Positions 1,576 through 38,270 are shown, counted from the first letter of the stretch. The stretch is 46,003 nucleotides of DNA from Pseudomonadota bacterium (GCA_043820105.1 JBDREC010000024.1:1-46003), one strand, 5' to 3'. The notes: generated by a model from the letters alone, not told the origin. Translations and numbers: made by a program.

Positions 1576-1620
1576 TGCAAATAAAGTGCCAAGAATGAGG
1601 CTAATGATATCAGCCGGTTA
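1576..1620 (-). promoter_or_regulatory. Sigma54 -24/-12 promoter with adjacent IHF site
   Basis: Minus strand TTGGCAC-TTTAT-TTGCA (1576..1592), GG-N10-GC spacing. TATCAG-CCGG-TTA at 1608..1620 fits WATCARNNNNTTR. Confidence 0.75.
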
Positions 1621-5593: not shown

Positions 5594-7591
5594 TTAATGC
5601 AATGATTGCATGCTTTCTGAGTTTTTATCTTCTTCAAATCTGGTGCCTTCTTCAATGATGAAAGCAGCTTCTTCAGCCCGATCTTCTGATCTTTCTTTAT
5701 CTTCAAAAGAATCATTAGGAGCCCACCTATCAAGATATTTCCCTAAAAATTCATTAAACTCCTCAATACTTGATTCAAGCTTTATCTTTTCTTTTTCTTC
5801 CAGTTCAGTTTCCATTGGAACCAGACTAGCATCAAATACACCACGTTCTTCCATTTGCGAACCCATTGCCCCTTCTCCCCTTGTTCTCTCAAACGCTAAA
5901 GCCCTCAACTCATCTTGATCTAATTTTTCATGAACTTTATAAAGAAAATGTTCATAAGCTCTTATTGTCAAAAGATATCTAAAGAGCGCTATCTTATCCT
6001 GCTTGCTTTCTATGTTTAATATCATTAGTTGTTTTACAATTGCTGGATTGTTTTCTATTTCATAAAGTATAAAATACACTGTTTCATTTATTGCTTTTTC
6101 AGACAAATCTATCAAATCAGCATTCTTTTCCACATTATTAAATTCAGCGATATTTGCAGACTCAAGAATTTGTTCTGCAAAACCAGAAGCTAGTTGAGCT
6201 CTTATATTTCTGATATTCATGTTATTTAACAAGGCATTTTCATAAATCCTGCTGGCTACATCTATCGCCTTTTTTACTGCCTTGTCTCTTTGATCAAGTA
6301 GTTTTGCTGCTTCTTCTGTTACATTTATTACCTCTCTTGCATTTGCTTTATCAATTGGAGCCAGTTTCTCTTTGTTAATATTTTTAAGTTCATTTCTGCT
6401 AATTGCTTCTTCTGCAAATTCATAGAGATCAATAAGTGTTTCGCCGGCGAGCTTATTAATTATATTACCAAGGGTCCTTTTTGCCTGGTCGCTAGTTTCA
6501 GCTTCAAACATCTTGTTTAATTCTTCCAGATTTTTTTTCTTTGTTTCATCTCCGTAGTTGTTCACTTCTTCTGCTAGAGAATATGCAGCCATTAAGCGAA
6601 CTGAGATATCTTGTGTGCTATTTAAAAGTGATCTTAAATATTCTATTATAGGTTCTCCACCTAAGGCATTTGTTCCCAGAAGCTCAACTGCCATAACCTT
6701 TGAAGTTTGTGCTCTTTTTATAGTTGCTAATCCCCAGCCTTTGCTTTCTTTATGTTCAATTAGATATCTTAAAAGGCTTCGAATTTCAGACTTAAACATG
6801 GGGTCTAATAATCTTATGTGTTCCTTTTTTTGATCTAATTCTTTTAAGACATCTTTTGTGTTTTGAGGGGCTTTTTTTAATTCTTTAATTATTCGTTTAA
6901 AATCTTTTTCAAAAATTATTTGAAGTTTTAATGAAATATAAGAACGATATAAACCCGCGCTTGAAAGTTCTGCCTGAAGAGCAGTTCTTATTTTAGCAAT
7001 TAAAATATTTGCTTCATAGCTTGTACGCTCTGACCAATGATCTGGTCCAATATTGCCTGAAGATCGATTTGGTTTAACATTATTGATTACTCTACTGGCA
7101 AGATTTTCATATCCTGGGAGGATTTCTTCATTTGTAAGTTTTATTCCATGCTCTAAAAGTAATAATCGAATCTGTTTTACTGAATGTTTTATTTCTTGAT
7201 TAAGGCTTTGCATATTTTCTCTTGAAAAATAATCATCATTGATTCTATTATCATCTGCAGATACCTTGCCTTGCTCCCTTATTATGCCAGTAATAGTTTC
7301 AATTGTCTCTTTTGATATTTGGCTTATGTCGCTTGAGAGCTCTAAAATATCTTTTGGAGCTTGTGGGGTTTCAATATCAGTATAGATTCTTGCAAAGGAG
7401 GCAATTGTTCTATCAATTTTTTCTTCTGCCGATTCAAAATTCTGATAAATCTCATCATTGACTTCGGTTTTGCCTTGCTCACAATCCGCGAAATAAAATT
7501 CAATTATTGCCCTGGTTTCAATAAGATTTTTCGCATTTTCAGGAATAAACTTTGTGGTTTTGGCAGATATTGAACTCACAATCTCAATCAT
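5594..7591 (-). CDS. Large helical/HEAT-like hypothetical protein; N-terminal part of a frameshifted, 5'-truncated gene
   Basis: 665-aa ORF with HEAT-like LLNSTQDISVRLMAAYSL. The frame stays open, without a start codon or signal peptide, up to 7747. Confidence 0.75.
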   Translation of the reverse strand: MIEIVSSISAKTTKFIPENAKNLIETRAIIEFYFADCEQGKTEVNDEIYQNFESAEEKIDRTIASFARIYTDIETPQAPKDILELSSDISQISKETIETITGIIREQGKVSADDNRINDDYFSRENMQSLNQEIKHSVKQIRLLLLEHGIKLTNEEILPGYENLASRVINNVKPNRSSGNIGPDHWSERTSYEANILIAKIRTALQAELSSAGLYRSYISLKLQIIFEKDFKRIIKELKKAPQNTKDVLKELDQKKEHIRLLDPMFKSEIRSLLRYLIEHKESKGWGLATIKRAQTSKVMAVELLGTNALGGEPIIEYLRSLLNSTQDISVRLMAAYSLAEEVNNYGDETKKKNLEELNKMFEAETSDQAKRTLGNIINKLAGETLIDLYEFAEEAISRNELKNINKEKLAPIDKANAREVINVTEEAAKLLDQRDKAVKKAIDVASRIYENALLNNMNIRNIRAQLASGFAEQILESANIAEFNNVEKNADLIDLSEKAINETVYFILYEIENNPAIVKQLMILNIESKQDKIALFRYLLTIRAYEHFLYKVHEKLDQDELRALAFERTRGEGAMGSQMEERGVFDASLVPMETELEEKEKIKLESSIEEFNEFLGKYLDRWAPNDSFEDKERSEDRAEEAAFIIEEGTRFEEDKNSESMQSLH

Positions 7592-7746: not shown

Positions 7747-8040
7747 ATTATAAAAGAAATTAGGCAAGATCCAGAGCTTATTAAAGAAATTGTTAATTTC
7801 TATAAGGCCTATAAGGAAGGAAGAAAAGGGTCTAATTATAATTTTAAGAAATTTACCAATGAACATGAATTTCTTCTTGGGATTACTTTAGATGCTGCCA
7901 GGCATCTAGAACAAGAAGGTAAGAGTTTTAATAAAGAAATTGAATTTATTGAAGAGGAGTTAGGGATTAGGAATAAAGGTGAACGATTAGGAGAACATAG
8001 GAATAATGGAAACTCCAGTATATGTATGAAGCTTTTTTAA
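7747..8040 (+). pseudogene. 5'-truncated CDS fragment (97 aa) ending in CxxLF; not in the ORF track
   Basis: Open frame after TAA at 7744 reads IIKEIRQDPELIKEIVNFYKAY...EHRNNGNSSICMKLF*. Protein-like composition, no usable start codon. Confidence 0.6.
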
Positions 8041-8180
8041 TTTAAAATCAGAGTTGACTGAGACACAAATTTCGTATGATTTAAATATTTGTATGCAATT
8101 GAGACTCAAAATCATCATCTTGAGCTTTTGTAAAAAGCAATAACTTGTTGTTATTAAACAGTATAAAAAAACCATGGATT

Positions 8181-8196
8181 TGGCACACCTTATGCA
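8181..8196 (+). promoter_or_regulatory. Sigma54 -24/-12 promoter
   Basis: TGGCAC-ACCTT-ATGCA with GG-N10-GC spacing; near-consensus IHF site on the opposite strand at 8141..8153. Confidence 0.65.
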
Positions 8197-8206
8197 ATAG
8201 CATATT

Positions 8207-8276
8207 AATAGCTTTTTCATATTCCTCCTCCTTGAAAAAGAAAATTCAGCCAACATGGGACATGTTGGCTATTTTT
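8207..8276 (+). ncRNA. Candidate two-hairpin small RNA or leader with an anti-SD loop
   Basis: Starts at the predicted sigma54 +1. Stem CTTTTTCA/TGAAAAAG (8212..8240) encloses loop TATTCCTCCTCCT, followed by a terminator-like hairpin and T tract. Confidence 0.45.
8248..8276 (+). terminator. Intrinsic terminator-like hairpin
   Basis: AGCCAACATG-GGA-CATGTTGGCT followed by ATTTTTGTTT. Confidence 0.65.
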
Positions 8277-8312
8277 GTTTGGGGGATATTAAATTTATTT
8301 TGGGGTGTTATT

Positions 8313-9824
8313 ATGAATCAGATAAATTCTAAAAGATGTTTTCTTCTTCTCTTTATTTTTACTTTATCTCTTCAATTTTCCGGACTCTTAATAGCCCAGG
8401 AAAGTTCACCCCAAGAATTGCGCGAAATCTTTGAAGCTATTGATGATGAAAATTATACTGAAAGAAAAAAAGTATCTCGGCAAATAGTCGAAAGGGCGGG
8501 TTATCATCTTAGGAATGACACTCCAACATTAGGAGCTATTATAAATCCTGATGCAGAGTTTAAGGATTTTAGATTAGGCAATCAGTTTTTAAAGATTCTT
8601 TTAGATAATCCCTATAAGGCTACAGCGTCTACTTATTTAGCAGCTTTCCAGCTATCAGGACATAGAATGACAGAGCTAACATATTCAGATAAAGCTCAGC
8701 AAAGACTTATTGATCTTTTCTCAAATGAATATGAACAGGGTGCTATTGGTAACATTCATCGCGTATATGCTGGATCTTTGATTTTGCAGCTACAAAGGAA
8801 TTCTAATAATACGCTTTTAATGAATACTAGTGATTTATTAATAAAAAACTTTGCAGAAGATATCAATTTTATTGATGCCTTTGTTGCAATTATAGGACTT
8901 TCGAATCATAAAGCTTCCCATACATTTCCTTATACTTTTGGAACCTGTTATGCAGGTCATACAAGATTAGTTTCTATTGCTTATCAGGTTACCAAGGCAT
9001 TGGCTGAGTTTGATGAAAGATACCAAAAATATGTTGAAGATTTTGATAAAGAGGTGGCATTATTTGAATCAGACCTGGGCTTTAATAATGATGCAATGGC
9101 TAGGTTTAAGTTTGATGTGAAATTAAAGAACCAAGATATAAATAATAATACTGCTTGGGATATTATGGATGTTGCTGAAACAAAGGAAAAAGATGAAGCT
9201 CTGAAATATCTAAAACTCATTATTGATAATGCAGAAAGAATTAATGATGGAATTGTAATGGATGCACTTTTAAAAATTCATAGTTTTGGTGAAGCCAGTA
9301 TAATTCCCGAAAATGTACAACTTATGTTAGTTTCTTCTTTTTTAGATGGAATAGATAGCAGTCAAAGAAAAATAAAACTTGGTGCTAGGTTATTTGCTGG
9401 AGTTTTAATTTTTCAATTTGCTGAAAACAAACAAAATAAAAAATTAAGACAATCTATTGATGGTATTGTTGAAAAAATGGCTGCTCAAGATGATCTCTTA
9501 AAAGAAATAGGCATATCATGGCAAGGAAAGAGGCTTTATGATGTTGCTTTACATTTTAGTGATAATCCAGAACTTGTTCCGTATTTTGAGCTTTTGGTAA
9601 GAATTGCTCAAGATATTGCATCTACACATCAAATGCTTCAGGATAGTGAGCGAAGAGAGCTTTGGACAAAGCTTTTTGAACAAATGCCAAGTTGGCCAAA
9701 CAGAGAATTTCCAGAATATTTGCTTTTAGAATTGAAAAGTTATCGTTCTGAAAAATTGAAATCTTTAAAAAACACTTCGATATCTTCTGCTGGTTCTTTA
9801 GGTTTTTGTATAAATTTATTTTAA
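8313..9824 (+). CDS. Secreted helical hypothetical protein with an internal duplication and CxxLF C-terminus
   Basis: ATG at 8313 after GGGGTG gives signal peptide MNQINSKRCFLLLFIFTLSLQFSGLLIA-QE; ends GFCINLF*. Confidence 0.8.
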   Translation: MNQINSKRCFLLLFIFTLSLQFSGLLIAQESSPQELREIFEAIDDENYTERKKVSRQIVERAGYHLRNDTPTLGAIINPDAEFKDFRLGNQFLKILLDNPYKATASTYLAAFQLSGHRMTELTYSDKAQQRLIDLFSNEYEQGAIGNIHRVYAGSLILQLQRNSNNTLLMNTSDLLIKNFAEDINFIDAFVAIIGLSNHKASHTFPYTFGTCYAGHTRLVSIAYQVTKALAEFDERYQKYVEDFDKEVALFESDLGFNNDAMARFKFDVKLKNQDINNNTAWDIMDVAETKEKDEALKYLKLIIDNAERINDGIVMDALLKIHSFGEASIIPENVQLMLVSSFLDGIDSSQRKIKLGARLFAGVLIFQFAENKQNKKLRQSIDGIVEKMAAQDDLLKEIGISWQGKRLYDVALHFSDNPELVPYFELLVRIAQDIASTHQMLQDSERRELWTKLFEQMPSWPNREFPEYLLLELKSYRSEKLKSLKNTSISSAGSLGFCINLF

Positions 9825-16999: not shown

Positions 17000-18650
17000 T
17001 AAATTTGAAGAAAAATTAGTAAATGATGTAGTTTTACTTGAAAAAATATCAAAAGATGAAGTCGAAAAAACAATTGATTTAAAGGATGATGAAGCTACAT
17101 TTATTGGGCAGTTATTTATTGAGCGTGGATTGATATCAGAAGATGATCTGGTTTGGGTAATGGGGCAATCTTGTGATTTGCCTGTTGTTCCTATTCAAAT
17201 GGAGGATTTTGATGAGGATGTTGTAAACACAATACCAGCTCATGTGTGTAGAAAGCTATTGGTTGTTCCGTATTTAAAAATAGCTAGCGATTTGTCTGTT
17301 ATTGCCGCAAGACCTTTATTGGATGAAGAAATTAAAGAGCTTAAGCAAATTTCAGGATGTAATGTTTCTCTTTCCCTGGGAGTCAAATCTCAAATTATTA
17401 ATGTGTTAAATAGTTTCTTTGGCACTTCATTTGCAGTTATTGAAGATGAACAGGAAAAAGAACCCATATCATCAGAATTTTATGATACAGAGCACTTGCA
17501 ATATTTGGCTTCTGATTATAGTGGTGAGCAAATTTGGCAATTTATTTTAGATAAGCTAGATTTTTATAAACCTATTTCAATTCAATTTGTTGTTTTAAAT
17601 TCAAGTGCTGACCTTAGATTTAAATTCGACTATGGCTCTAAGACATTACTTAGACTAAATAGAGAGTGGTCCAGAATCTTTCAGAAAAAACTTGATGCCA
17701 TTATTAGCACAGAAAGCTCACAGATTTCAGAAAAGCTTTTTATAAAAAGAATTTCATATCAAAAAGATGAAAAAACTCACTATCATACTTTGAAAATTCA
17801 TATTCATTATTCTTTCTATGGAAAATCTTATAATTTTTATCCATTTTATTCATCAAATGAAATTAATGAGTTTGATTCACATCAAGACGGTATAGATGAA
17901 ATAGCTAATGAGTTATCAAATGCTTCAAGAGGACTTATCTTAACCTTTGGAAACCTGCATTCAAAGAATAAAAGGCCAATATTGTCTCTTTTGGATAAGC
18001 TTGCTTCTAAGAATAAATATGCTTCTTCTATTGTACCTTTTTCAATTTCTAATTATGAGTCAGTTGAGCAAGTAGATTATGTTGAGGAAGAAAACTCAAT
18101 GAAAGCTTTAGATGAAGTAATGGCTGGTGGTTCTGATGTTGTTTATTTTGATGGATGTATTGAATCTTTAAGCCAATCAAAATTAAACGCCATCTTTAAC
18201 GACGGGCTTATCTTTTTAGATGCAAATCTCACATCACCTCAAGATATGATTATGTTTCTTTTTAAAAATTATCTTTCTAATAATTTTGCTGTATTAAATA
18301 ATTTACATTCAATTTTATTTCTAAATTCTATACCGGTTCTTTGTAAATGGTGTAGGCAAGAAAAGAAAACTAAGCTAGCTCAAGATATGACCCTTTTTGA
18401 AAAGGTTGGTTGTGAAAGATGTATGGACCTTGGGTATTCTGGAACCAAAAGTTTTTATGAGCTTTTAAAAATACCAAATGATTTGTTTTATAATATGAAG
18501 AAAAAAGACTTATCAAAATTTGAGTTTTGTGAAAATTTAGAAAAGTTAATTGATCCAATTGTTCAAAATCTTAGAAAAGCTGTTTTTAAAGATGTTATAA
18601 TAGGAAATATTAACCAAGAATCTATAATTAATTTTTCTTTGGAGGCCTAA
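16989..18650 (+). CDS. PilB/GspE-like protein with T2SSE_N/MshEN-like N-terminus and a degenerate ATPase domain
   Basis: FIGQLFIERGLISEDDL and IPAHVCRKLLVVP. The Walker A position reads GLILTFGNLHSKNKR; the Zn tetracysteine LCKWC...GCERCMDLGYSG is retained. GAGGAGG RBS. Confidence 0.8.
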   Translation: MPLNKFEEKLVNDVVLLEKISKDEVEKTIDLKDDEATFIGQLFIERGLISEDDLVWVMGQSCDLPVVPIQMEDFDEDVVNTIPAHVCRKLLVVPYLKIASDLSVIAARPLLDEEIKELKQISGCNVSLSLGVKSQIINVLNSFFGTSFAVIEDEQEKEPISSEFYDTEHLQYLASDYSGEQIWQFILDKLDFYKPISIQFVVLNSSADLRFKFDYGSKTLLRLNREWSRIFQKKLDAIISTESSQISEKLFIKRISYQKDEKTHYHTLKIHIHYSFYGKSYNFYPFYSSNEINEFDSHQDGIDEIANELSNASRGLILTFGNLHSKNKRPILSLLDKLASKNKYASSIVPFSISNYESVEQVDYVEEENSMKALDEVMAGGSDVVYFDGCIESLSQSKLNAIFNDGLIFLDANLTSPQDMIMFLFKNYLSNNFAVLNNLHSILFLNSIPVLCKWCRQEKKTKLAQDMTLFEKVGCERCMDLGYSGTKSFYELLKIPNDLFYNMKKKDLSKFEFCENLEKLIDPIVQNLRKAVFKDVIIGNINQESIINFSLEA

Positions 18651-20233: not shown

Positions 20234-21448
20234 ATGAAAAAAATAATTTTATTCATTTCTCTATTCTTTATCATTTCATCATTGAGTTTACTTGCAAACA
20301 CTGTTGATACAGCTACTAAATATGGTGCTAAAGCCTCTGGTATGGCATCAGGTGGAGCTGTTGCAATGTCTGGAAATTCTGGCCTGGTTTATTTTAACCC
20401 AGCTACAATTGCTGGAGTTAGAAACTCAGATTTTACTGTAAACTTTACCTCTGGAATTCCAGTCATGTCAGGACCTGCAAATGGAGCCGGGACAAGTGTT
20501 GATTCTGCCTTTCTATATTTTCCACTTTTTAATATTGGTGGTGCTTTAAGGTTACATGATTATGTTGTTTTAGGATTTAATGCTTATAACTCTGGCGGAC
20601 TTGGGGCTAAGTATGATGATATTAATTTTGGCAACAGTGCTTTAACAGCCCGAGAAATGTCGGCTCAAACCTCAGTTATGGAGCTTGGACCAACTCTTGC
20701 CCTTGACCTTCCATATGGTCTTTCCTTGGGTGTTGCTTATAAAGTTTCTTATGTTGCAGAAGACATTAAATCTTATGATGCTACTGGTGCTTATTCAGAC
20801 ATGTCTTTGACTGGCTTAAATTATATGGGGTTTAAATTTGGTCTCCAATATGAACCCATTGAAGACTTATCCTTTGGTGCTTCTTATAGGCTAGCAACAA
20901 CTACGACCTTATCAGGATCATCAACTGTTTCAGCCACAGCTGGTACTGCTATTTATGACGCTGCAACAGATTTTGAATATGTTGATCAGGTAAGGGCAGG
21001 GGTTGAATATAAAATGCTTGATAAAAAACTATCCATTGGAACAGACTTTGAATATACCTTTTATTCAAAAGTAGATTCAGCTGATTTTGATTTAAGCTTA
21101 TCTGGAACAACTGTTACATCTTCAAACACATTGAATTGGAATGACCAGTGGGGAGCTTATCTTGGATCTGAATACTATGTTATAGAAAAACTACCAGTTC
21201 GAATCGGTGGTGGTGTTTATTCAGACATAGTTCCGGCAGGATATGCATCATCTTTATATCCTGCTCCAGGTCTTGGCTGGTTGGTTTCAGCTGGCGCCAG
21301 CTATGAATTTACAAGTTTTGAAGCTGGATTTTGGTATAACTATTATTCAGCTCAAGGAAGAGTCGCTTCAACTGTAAGCACGACTTTTCCAGGAGATTAT
21401 AGCACCTCTATTCATCTTGTAGGCCTGGAATTTAGGTTTGCTGACTAG
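20234..21448 (+). CDS. OmpP1/FadL/TodX family outer membrane transporter
   Basis: Signal peptide; GAKASGMASGGAVA...VYFNPA plug motif; alternating beta-strand pattern; aromatic-rich C-terminal strand; AAGGAG RBS. Confidence 0.85.
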   Translation: MKKIILFISLFFIISSLSLLANTVDTATKYGAKASGMASGGAVAMSGNSGLVYFNPATIAGVRNSDFTVNFTSGIPVMSGPANGAGTSVDSAFLYFPLFNIGGALRLHDYVVLGFNAYNSGGLGAKYDDINFGNSALTAREMSAQTSVMELGPTLALDLPYGLSLGVAYKVSYVAEDIKSYDATGAYSDMSLTGLNYMGFKFGLQYEPIEDLSFGASYRLATTTTLSGSSTVSATAGTAIYDAATDFEYVDQVRAGVEYKMLDKKLSIGTDFEYTFYSKVDSADFDLSLSGTTVTSSNTLNWNDQWGAYLGSEYYVIEKLPVRIGGGVYSDIVPAGYASSLYPAPGLGWLVSAGASYEFTSFEAGFWYNYYSAQGRVASTVSTTFPGDYSTSIHLVGLEFRFAD

Positions 21449-21715
21449 CTTATAAGAAAAACTTATAAAGATTATAATCTTGACTTTGGATATTTCGATC
21501 TGTAAGCTATCTTTTCCTATTGGAATATAAATGGAGGGGGAAGACGTTTGGCTAAGAAATTTATTCCCGGTCAAGCTTCCATTAATTATGTATTGAAATC
21601 CACTATACATCTCTATCTTCATCAAAAAGAAAAGCACTTTGTCCTTTATGACACTACCTGATAAACCAATTTATAAATAAAATTGAATAATTAAGTTAAA
21701 TTTAGGAGGGGGAAA

Positions 21716-23098
21716 ATGAAAAAGCTTACATGTGTAATTTTTATAATGTGTTTATCTTGGGCAAGTGCAAATTCAAAAATTGATTCCTATCTGGCAGATC
21801 ATTTTAGTGAACCTGAAAATGAAATAGCTAAAGTTTTAATTATGATAGATGATAGTGAAGTTCTTGATTATTATACCAATGAAATAAATGAATATTATTT
21901 TGATTATAAAACTATGGTTAGCATGTTGAAATATATTGAAGAAGAAACACAAAAGGATATTAGGAATGATCTTAATACAAAACATTATAACGGCGATACT
22001 TTAGTTGCTCCTGTTAAAACTCTCTGGAATTGTAATAGTATTGTGGCCTATGTAAATAAAAAGGGTTTGGCCTGGTTGACATCAAGGTCGGATGTGCAAA
22101 AAATATTATTGGATAGAGATATGCAAATAGAGCCAGGTTTTCCATCATTGTCACCATTTGAGGAGGACGATAAACCACCTGTTGGCTATACATATGGTTT
22201 GAAGAAAATTGGAATCGATAAACTTAATGAGGAAATGCCTTGGTTAACGGGAGAAGGAGTGCTTGTTGGAGTGATTGATTCTGGTGTTGATGGAACTCAC
22301 CCTGAGCTTGAAGGCAAAATTTATAAATTTAAAAACATGAATAGCAGTGATCCAAACGCATCTGATGATAATCCTGTAGATTACCATGGTCATGGAACTC
22401 ATGTGTCTGGAACGATTCTGGGGGGAAATCTAAGTGGCGCTCAAATTGGCGTGGCTCCAGGTGCTATGCTTGTTGCTTCGGCTGCTCTAAGTGGTTGGTC
22501 GCCATATTCAAATATTTTAGAAGCTATGCAATGGATCATGGATCCAGATGGAGATCCTGAAACAGCTGATTTTCCAAGAGTAGTTAATTGTTCCTGGCAT
22601 TCTGGCAATGCCCCATCTCAAGAACCTTTTTATAAAGCAATTGCAGCGTGGGAAGCAGCCAACATAGTGCCTAATTTTTCTGCTGGAAATGCTGGCGAAA
22701 ATGGCTTAACAAATCCAAAAGAATTTCCATCAACCTTTACAGTAGCAGCTACAGATATGAATGATCTTATTGCACCTTTTTCAAGTCATGGGCCCGCTAT
22801 TTACCTGGGAGATGAATTTATGAAACCTGAAGTTTCAGCTCCAGGCGTTGATATTTTTTCTTCATTACCTGAAGGAAAATATGAAAAGTGGTCAGGAACG
22901 TCTATGGCTGCTCCTCATGTTGCTGGAACTATGGCCCTCTTATTTCAAATTGACCCAGAATTAACAGTAGATGGAGTGAAAGAACTTTTAATTTCAACTT
23001 CAGTTGATCTTGGCGATGAGGGCTGGGATTATCGATATGGCTTTGGAAGGATTGATGCCTTTGCAGCAGCTGCGGAATTAATTAGTCGACTTTATTAA
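21716..23098 (+). CDS. Secreted S8 subtilisin-like serine peptidase (bacillopeptidase F-like)
   Basis: Signal peptide and prodomain; catalytic triad GVIDSG, HGHGTHVSG, SGTSMAAPHVAG; oxyanion SAGN; YGFGRID. Confidence 0.96.
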   Translation: MKKLTCVIFIMCLSWASANSKIDSYLADHFSEPENEIAKVLIMIDDSEVLDYYTNEINEYYFDYKTMVSMLKYIEEETQKDIRNDLNTKHYNGDTLVAPVKTLWNCNSIVAYVNKKGLAWLTSRSDVQKILLDRDMQIEPGFPSLSPFEEDDKPPVGYTYGLKKIGIDKLNEEMPWLTGEGVLVGVIDSGVDGTHPELEGKIYKFKNMNSSDPNASDDNPVDYHGHGTHVSGTILGGNLSGAQIGVAPGAMLVASAALSGWSPYSNILEAMQWIMDPDGDPETADFPRVVNCSWHSGNAPSQEPFYKAIAAWEAANIVPNFSAGNAGENGLTNPKEFPSTFTVAATDMNDLIAPFSSHGPAIYLGDEFMKPEVSAPGVDIFSSLPEGKYEKWSGTSMAAPHVAGTMALLFQIDPELTVDGVKELLISTSVDLGDEGWDYRYGFGRIDAFAAAAELISRLY

Positions 23099-38180: not shown

Positions 38181-38270
38181 CGGAGAGCGCGGGATTCGAA
38201 CCCGCGAGGCAGTTTAACCCGCCCACACGATTAGCAATCGTGCGCCTTCAGCCGACTCGGCCAGCTCTCC
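38181..38270 (-). tRNA. tRNA-Ser(GCT)
   Basis: GGAGAGC acceptor, anticodon arm CACGA-TTGCTAA-TCGTG, long variable arm, GGTTCGAATCC T loop, G discriminator; CCA not encoded. Confidence 0.97.

Follow-up and report, generated by a model that had tools for sequence, protein, structure and literature searches.

The element at positions 8181 to 8280 of the window (the whole 46,003-nucleotide stretch of DNA that was analyzed) is probably one of five paralogous small RNA (sRNA) genes, each specifying an RNA of about 70 to 80 nucleotides (nt) that is predicted to block ribosome binding; the RNA of the window copy would be made from a sigma-54 promoter. An initial annotation of the window had proposed a sigma-54-driven, trans-acting sRNA with an exposed anti-Shine-Dalgarno (anti-SD) loop, and this proposal is supported by the existence of a multicopy family, by the conservation of promoter and core, and by terminators that differ from copy to copy. 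From these sequence features, we infer that the locus is transcribed, where its RNA begins and ends, that the RNA acts in trans, and that it represses translation. With a putative promoter and intrinsic terminator of its own, an intergenic position, and no conserved open reading frame (ORF), the locus has the features generally expected of a gene for a trans-acting sRNA.

Architecture of the predicted sRNA locus

The sigma-54 motif, of the −24/−12 type (TGGCACaccttaTGCA), lies on the plus strand at positions 8181 to 8196, with GG at 8182-8183 and GC at 8194-8195. Placing C8195 at −12 puts the predicted transcription start at about 8207, where the initial annotation had located it from this motif. 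The pattern TGGCAC-N6-TGCW is found three times in the window, against 0.12 matches expected, and none of 100 shuffled sequences reached three. The predicted transcript runs on the plus strand from 8207 to 8277 (about 71 nt), its 5′ end being taken from promoter geometry and its 3′ end from the T tract of the terminator.

Within this transcript, fold prediction places a first stem-loop (stem-loop 1) at 8212 to 8240, in which an 8-bp A/U-rich stem formed by CUUUUUCA (8212-8219) and UGAAAAAG (8233-8240) encloses the 13-nt loop UAUUCCUCCUCCU (8220-8232), and the anti-SD motif CCUCCUCC sits in that loop. The 5′ stem arm and the loop together make up what we call the anti-start-region segment (8210 to 8232, plus strand), which is antisense to AGGAGGAGGAAUAUGAAAAAGCU, that is, to an SD sequence, a spacer, and AUG AAA AAG CU. 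Stem-loop 1 is followed by a predicted intrinsic terminator at 8248 to 8280 (plus strand), comprising a perfect 10-bp hairpin (AGCCAACATG/CATGTTGGCT, 8248-8270) with a 3-nt loop and then ATTTTTGTTT. On the minus strand, a 77-codon ORF (7987 to 8220) starts opposite the sRNA core; we judged it not to be a gene, as set out below.

Folding of positions 8205 to 8277 returned stem-loop 1 and the hairpin at 8248-8270 as both the minimum-free-energy and the centroid structure, at −20.1 kcal/mol (z = −3.9), and only 1 of 200 shuffled sequences folded equally well. When the fold was extended past the terminator (8205-8285 or 8205-8330), the stem of stem-loop 1 was no longer part of the best structure, and CCUCCUCC paired instead with downstream G runs. 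The 8-bp stem with its exposed loop is thus the best fold of 8205-8277, though it is lost in longer folds. The covariance model R1 scores the window copy at 90.2 bits. Every detail described in the initial annotation was confirmed, including the promoter motif, the stem with its loop, and the perfect 10-bp hairpin with its U tract.

A 97-codon open frame (7747 to 8040, plus strand) occupies the interval between the sRNA promoter and the divergent gene ending at 7591. It has a plausible protein-like composition, no ATG, GTG, or TTG start, and no Pfam match, and could be either a decayed gene or one that uses a noncanonical start.

Five copies in the genome share an invariant core

Further copies of the element emerged when positions 8100 to 8400 were used as the query in a similarity search of 40 other genomes and the organism's own assembly (G000; 3.81 Mb, 32% GC, 113 contigs, 92.9% complete). 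Its 30-nt core (GCTTTTTCATATTCCTCCTCCTTGAAAAAG) occurs exactly five times in G000 according to a mismatch-tolerant scan; the copies on contigs C24 (the window), C80, C10, and C90 are identical, and that on C30 carries three substitutions. Each of the five consists of the core, a short A/T spacer, and a different GC-rich hairpin with a T run, all on the same strand. Homology between the copies extends from the −24 element to just past stem-loop 1, which is the pattern expected if the promoter and a functional segment of the RNA are under selection.

The annotation had called for a search for structural conservation and covariation in related genomes, and the outcome differed between the two hairpins. 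In an alignment of seven sequences, 7 of the 10 terminator pairs showed compensatory changes, and none of the 7 predicted pairs of stem-loop 1 did, so that the terminator gained covariation support and the first stem-loop, being invariant, gained none in this alignment. The core sequence, stem-loop 1 included, is kept in four of the five own copies and in the relatives, with the exception of the distal 3′ arm, which is altered without compensation in the C30 copy and in the related genomes G001 and G002. The 5′ arm together with its 5′ extension (AGCUUUUUCA) is unchanged in all seven aligned copies. An invariant 5′ arm opposite a variable distal 3′ arm suggests that the 5′ arm is constrained beyond its own stem. 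An examination of 268 CCUCC-type sites in the genome for further anti-SD hairpins with other stems revealed no apparent additional family members.

Three other repeated sequences were recorded in this genome. The C80 copy is flanked on both sides (locus L025) by a repeat of about 40 nt (GTGGGTGGCA[C/G]ATTTTTG...TTTCTTGGACGCCACATTT), which lies about 200 nt away on the upstream side and about 130 nt away on the downstream side. A sequence of about 44 nt with CCTCCTC in a hairpin recurs 48 nt from the ends of contigs C103, C109, C47, C62, C63, and C95 and probably marks the terminus of an insertion sequence at which the assembly breaks. Finally, TTAGGGAGGAAAAATCTTTCCTCCCT is present in two copies, on C49 (around 103934, minus strand) and C76 (around 19919, plus strand), each folding into a strong hairpin that pairs CCUCCC with an SD-like GGGAGG; these hairpins may represent an SD-sequestering leader.

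Distribution of the family in relatives and metagenomes

R1 matched three of the four genomes of the phylum, with five copies in G000 and one each in G001 and G002; G003 (86% complete) gave no match. Across 151 genomes, including those of other phyla, four were matched by the model. The weak match in the unrelated genome G092 was rejected as a false positive, as it corresponds to a genuine gene start on the opposite strand beside a terminator. A scan with an exact pattern, which members with an altered core escape, yielded four loci in genome contigs, two of them real (those of G001 and G002), and five loci in metagenome contigs, of which two, L020 and L021, were real and of the G002 type.

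G001 and G002 belong to one genus, in another family of the window organism's order, and L020 and L021 are nearly identical to G002. Despite divergence of the promoter and terminator, the core is 100% identical in the two families, a pattern that points to purifying selection and not to recent spread. The conservation evidence is real but thin, because it comes from effectively two independent lineages of a phylum represented by four genomes. In G001, the terminator hairpin is followed by CCCTTTAAT and not by a clear T run. A look-up of sequencing runs placed parts of the window in four groundwater-metagenome DNA runs and in no RNA run.

The relatives contain another conserved element about 100 to 190 nt upstream of the core, just upstream of the promoter (L002 and L030 for G002; L003 and L029 for G001). 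It comprises a TTGACA promoter-like box and a hairpin, GTGTCTCA...TGAGAC, is matched by no Rfam family, and could represent a further small RNA.

Evidence for sigma-54 control

We infer sigma-54 dependence of the sRNA from the motif and its genomic context. TGGCAC-N5-xTGCA stands at a fixed distance from the core in three of the five own copies (C24, C80, and C10), and no TGG(C/T)A(C/T) was found within 330 nt upstream of the core in C90 and C30. In G001, G002, and the metagenome contig L020, the core is preceded by TGGTAT-N5-TTGCA, shifted in position by one base; compared with the own copies, the relatives' promoter retains the GG and the GC and differs at neighboring bases. L021 is truncated 27 nt before the core, leaving only the −12 half visible. 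The window and C10 copies differ at four nucleotides upstream of the core, all of them at noncritical promoter positions.

The genome has one rpoN gene and 33 Sigma54_activat matches, 31 of these at an E value of ≤1e−27, and it contains 73 strict TGGCAC-N5-TTGC motifs, where about 2 would be expected by an estimate from base composition. An operon for a hybrid histidine kinase, an NtrC-type activator, and a protein of unknown function lies approximately 190 to 215 nt upstream of the C80 copy. Alignment of the 150 nt upstream of the five sigma-54-bearing copies brought out no convincing shared upstream activator site. A sigma-54 promoter requires an activated enhancer-binding protein, and the RNA would thus be made only in response to a signal.

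Two more exact sigma-54 motifs (TGGCAC-N5-TTTGCA) are present in the window, at 1576 to 1591 (minus strand) and 17420 to 17435 (plus strand). The former overlaps the annotated TTG start of the ORF at 228-1592, suggesting that the true start of this gene lies further downstream. Elsewhere in the genome, we noted eight open frames of about 1,950 to 1,990 amino acids with a sigma-54 activator domain (on C27, C54, C90 [two frames], C10, C88, C49, and C64), a paralogous set of unusually large enhancer-binding proteins, as well as a further activator-domain frame of 1,670 amino acids on C54.

The best predicted target is the start region of a secreted subtilase

The best predicted target comprises the SD sequence, start codon, and first codons (21704 to 21726, plus strand) of a gene at 21716-23098. 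Its product is a secreted Peptidase_S8 subtilase with a signal-peptide-like N terminus. Positions 8210 to 8232 depart from perfect antisense to this site at 2 of 23 positions, forming 21 Watson-Crick pairs, 1 G:U pair, and 1 A:A mismatch, in agreement with the count originally given. When antisense sites for the 23-mer were sought on both strands (7.6 Mb), those with zero or one mismatch were the five sRNA loci themselves and the one with two mismatches was the subtilase start region; three mismatches gave one site on C104, four gave none, and five gave 13. The subtilase start region was therefore the only nonself site with two or fewer mismatches.

The annotation had also proposed a genome-wide ranking of start regions. 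Ranked by duplex energy, the subtilase came first among 5,049 ORF start regions, at −34.2 kcal/mol versus −31.9 kcal/mol for the next, and it was still first (−26.0 versus −23.7 kcal/mol) after unfolding costs had been subtracted for the 250 best of 2,477. The net cofolding ΔΔG was −26 kcal/mol, compared with −4.3 ± 3.0 kcal/mol for shuffled mRNA. Under a position-weight null built from the genome's own start regions, 0.0003 to 0.0006 genes would be expected at two or fewer mismatches; judged by the counts observed at five to seven mismatches, this null underestimates the tail some 5- to 10-fold. The concern that an SD sequence plus ATGAAAAA is common in this genome and inflates the match is, given the uniqueness and rank of the subtilase site, weaker than had been feared. 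Regulation of the subtilase by the sRNA is a prediction only, drawn from these pairings.

In the other genomes of the phylum (G001, G002, and G003), no nonself site with three or fewer mismatches to the 23-mer was found. The nearest subtilase in G001 is only 39% identical, and the subtilase paralogue in the window organism's own genome begins with ATGAGAAAA. The genes of the relatives that carry an SD sequence followed by ATGAAAAAGCT encode an orthologous PrsA/SurA-like PPIase lipoprotein in both, a GspD secretin, and a GspG pseudopilin; the own-genome orthologue of this lipoprotein gene, which is the relatives' best candidate, is not a good match for the sRNA. Since a Met-Lys-Lys start favors exported proteins, the secretion theme is partly built into the target search.

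DUF5658 (PF18902) is encoded by only four genes in the genome, two of which directly adjoin two of the five sRNA copies. On C10, the gene (around 20896-21138, minus strand) shares the strand of the sRNA, follows it at a distance of about 150 nt, and carries a TGGCAC-N5-TTGT motif of its own; the one on C30 (53043-53279, plus strand) is divergent from the sRNA. A perfect TGGCAC-AGCTC-TTGCT motif accompanies the gene on C46 (13673-14035, plus strand), whose start region comes about 6th to 10th in the ranking of predicted sRNA targets. The fourth gene is on C61.

Proposed mechanism and alternative explanations

According to the explanation that we favor, transcription would start at about 8207 from the sigma-54 promoter and stop at the intrinsic terminator at 8248-8280. 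One weak A/U stem would then present the loop UAUUCCUCCUCCU as a mimic of the 3′ end of 16S rRNA, and the loop would pair with the SD sequences of mRNAs and so block ribosome binding. The 16S rRNA of this organism ends in CACCUCCUUUC; the loop shares CCUCCUU with that end and is antisense to GGAGGAGG, and predicted start regions have a G-rich, SD-like consensus upstream of the start codon. Taken together, these observations make occlusion of the ribosome-binding site (RBS) the natural reading. Where an mRNA goes on to AUGAAAAAGCU after the SD sequence, the invariant 5′ arm could give up its internal partner and pair with the mRNA instead, so that the duplex would reach across the start codon, and the best genomic site for such an extended duplex would be the start region of the subtilase gene at 21716. 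Pairing with AUGAAAAAGCU after the loop has docked on the SD sequence is suggested as the simplest candidate for the constraint on the 5′ arm. The only Hfq candidate in the genome was a single subthreshold match (25.6 bits versus a cutoff of 27).

A more specific version of this mechanism, which we put forward tentatively and consider possible but rather doubtful, is a natural "toehold" regulator of start regions, in which the loop would seed on the SD sequence and the 5′ arm would leave UGAAAAAG for the mRNA sequence AUGAAAAAG(CU) by strand displacement, creating two tiers of targets. If this were true, the first tier would be a weak global damping of mRNAs with strong SD sequences and the second a tight shutoff of a few Met-Lys-Lys signal-peptide mRNAs, namely, the subtilase here and the PrsA/SurA-like lipoprotein and type II secretion components in the relatives. 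The RNA would then act, on receipt of a signal, to curb the secreted proteome in this candidate phylum of four genomes, and the DUF5658 link may mark the same regulon.

Four other explanations were weighed against pairing of the sRNA with mRNAs. We consider unlikely a transcribed RNA that would not pair with mRNAs but would serve as a decoy, either for whichever protein or ribosome component recognizes the 16S rRNA 3′ end or for some other RNA-binding protein. A decoy would account for a 30-nt core that is invariant across two families, stem included, beyond what SD pairing alone demands, for the CCUCCUU shared with the 16S tail, and for the lack of conservation of the extended mRNA match in the relatives. 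However, no candidate binding protein was identified, an invariant 5′ arm facing a variable distal 3′ arm fits pairing with AUGAAAAAGCU better than it fits a shape-specific protein site, and RNAs known to have the same loop motif are described as acting by pairing at ribosome-binding sites (PMC10746234). We regard as very unlikely a role as a cis-acting leader or attenuator of the gene at 8313-9824, in which the terminator would abort transcription or, on read-through, the anti-SD loop would sequester the RBS of the gene. The initial annotation had offered such a leader as its alternative, and the sRNA is indeed on the strand of this gene, 36 nt upstream of its start; the predicted structure of 8205-8330 has CCUCCUCC bound to G runs adjoining the start codon, at 8278-8282 and 8303-8306; and the C10 and C30 copies likewise have a same-strand gene 150 to 200 nt downstream. 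Yet the C80, C90, and G001 copies face convergent genes, which argues for a stand-alone sRNA and leaves the leader unsupported, and the G002 copy is followed by a tRNA. The genes downstream of the copies are, moreover, mutually unrelated, homology stops before the terminator with nothing shared beyond it, and the gene downstream of the C10 copy has a sigma-54-like motif of its own past the sRNA terminator.

The multicopy nature of the element, the two copies (C90 and C30) that lack a sigma-54 motif, and the short repeat flanking the C80 copy would also be compatible with nonfunctional remnants of a duplicated promoter-terminator cassette or small mobile element. This seems highly improbable, as neither terminal inverted repeats nor target duplications are present, the flanks are unrelated, and the core has stayed identical across families while the sequences on either side of it diverged. 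Hardly credible, finally, is a minus-strand product, either a small protein translated from 8220 behind the perfect SD sequence AGGAGGAGG or a type I toxin-antitoxin system whose toxin start would be covered by the antisense plus-strand RNA. The minus strand does read AGGAGGAGGAAUAUGAAAAAG, an ideal start region that opens the 77-codon ORF, the terminator hairpin scores as a terminator on that strand too, and the weak G092 match proved to be just such a gene start. Against this, the ORFs of the five own copies measure 77, 32, 19, 21, and 34 codons, similarity between their peptides does not extend past the shared promoter and core DNA, and TTG replaces ATG as the start of one; on the minus strand, each of the four nucleotide changes that separate the window copy from the C10 copy upstream of the core would be nonsynonymous; and Pfam returned nothing meaningful for the ORF or for flanking proteins of unknown function. 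Nor do the copies share sequence in the place expected of a minus-strand promoter, all five own copies have their T run on the plus side of the hairpin, and no minus-strand gene in the window ends upstream of the locus. ORFs of 19 to 77 codons without conservation indicate that the locus is not coding, so that the minus-strand ORF at 8220, which the initial annotation had named as the finding that could explain away the SD-like sequence, does not do so. A type I toxin-antitoxin locus was rejected for want of a conserved small hydrophobic toxin ORF, the conservation of the ORFs being confined to the shared promoter DNA.

Comparison with known sRNA families

Searched with Rfam at gathering thresholds, the whole window gave only a tRNA (38181-38270), and relaxed scans produced subthreshold matches alone, with no family reaching threshold for the sRNA element. 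The Rfam check that the annotation had recommended thus assigned the element to no family. The best-ranking plus-strand near misses over the predicted RNA were the toxic small RNAs (RF02278; 18.7 bits versus a threshold of 50) and Neisseria NmsRb (RF02877; 18.6 versus 52).

The cuckoo, or alpha-r14, sRNAs (CcsR/RSs0680 and NfeR1; ar14, RF02344) resemble the window RNA in carrying the anti-SD motif CCUCCUCC(C) in a hairpin loop and in having several paralogous copies per genome. They are described as having two to four adjacent hairpins, each with CCUCCUCCC in its loop, and highly variable stems (PMC4615179), whereas the window RNA has a single motif hairpin plus a terminator, an invariant stem, and the loop CCUCCUCCU. 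For NfeR1, RBS occlusion by the anti-SD loops is reported to have been demonstrated experimentally and to be Hfq independent (PMC4615179, PMC10746234). The cuckoo promoters for which a description was read are not of the sigma-54 type: that of RSs0680 is given as RpoHI/HII dependent and that of NfeR1 as lacking a sigma-54 signature. The two groups also differ in origin, the cuckoo RNAs coming from Alphaproteobacteria and the window RNA from a different phylum. The Rfam ar14 model scored the C10 copy at 32.9 bits against a threshold of 58.8 and did not match the window copy at an E value of ≤10.

Qrr sRNAs depend on Hfq and occur as several paralogous copies with a common invariant pairing segment of about 30 nt. 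The window RNA has no sequence or Rfam similarity to them, and its pairing region is instead a generic segment, against the SD sequence and start codon, exposed in a loop; only a subthreshold Hfq match and no shared activator sites were found here. In the Vibrionaceae, Qrr genes are described as having sigma-54 promoters under a response-regulator-type enhancer-binding protein and as adjoining the regulator gene (PMC10162802). The likeness on our side consists of the sigma-54 motif, as a sequence motif only, in three of the five own copies and in G001, G002, and L020, and of the position of the C80 copy beside an NtrC-type regulator.

The toxic small RNAs of Betaproteobacteria are reported to be 57 to 92 nt long and multicopy, with four per Burkholderia cenocepacia genome, and to carry a pyrimidine-rich, anti-SD-like segment directly before the terminator hairpin (PMC4603805). 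They and the Neisseria NmsR RNAs thus share with the window RNA a short length, multiple copies, and an anti-SD-like segment followed by a terminator, but the part aligned by Rfam is mostly terminator, and the phylum, stem-loop, and promoter type differ. RsaE/RoxS of Firmicutes uses C-rich loops to pair with the G-rich SD regions of several mRNAs, independently of Hfq; it is a single-copy RNA that is not known to be sigma-54 dependent and differs from the window RNA in motif and structure, and it gave no Rfam match at an E value of ≤10. Other sRNAs reported to be sigma-54 dependent include GlmY/GlmZ (PMC3045617), NcS25 (PMC10117139), and a Campylobacter sRNA (PMC11187230). Judged by these comparisons, the predicted RNA is a new family of a known functional kind and belongs to none of the cuckoo, toxic sRNA, and Qrr types.

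The element would provide a well-defined and testable regulatory RNA family in a lineage that has no cultured members and is represented by four genome species only. Our literature search, which was aimed at the RNA type and not at the lineage, found no RNA regulator from this lineage. The family would also combine features that are usually found apart, namely, multicopy sigma-54-driven expression, as in Qrr, and an anti-SD loop, as in the cuckoo, toxic sRNA, and RsaE types; a nonexhaustive search found no such combination among the sRNAs compared. The invariant stem arm, by extending the antisense match over AUG AAA AAG, suggests selectivity for mRNAs of secreted proteins. For annotation, the locus illustrates that an SD-like sequence followed by ATG can arise simply as the complement of an sRNA encoded on the opposite strand.
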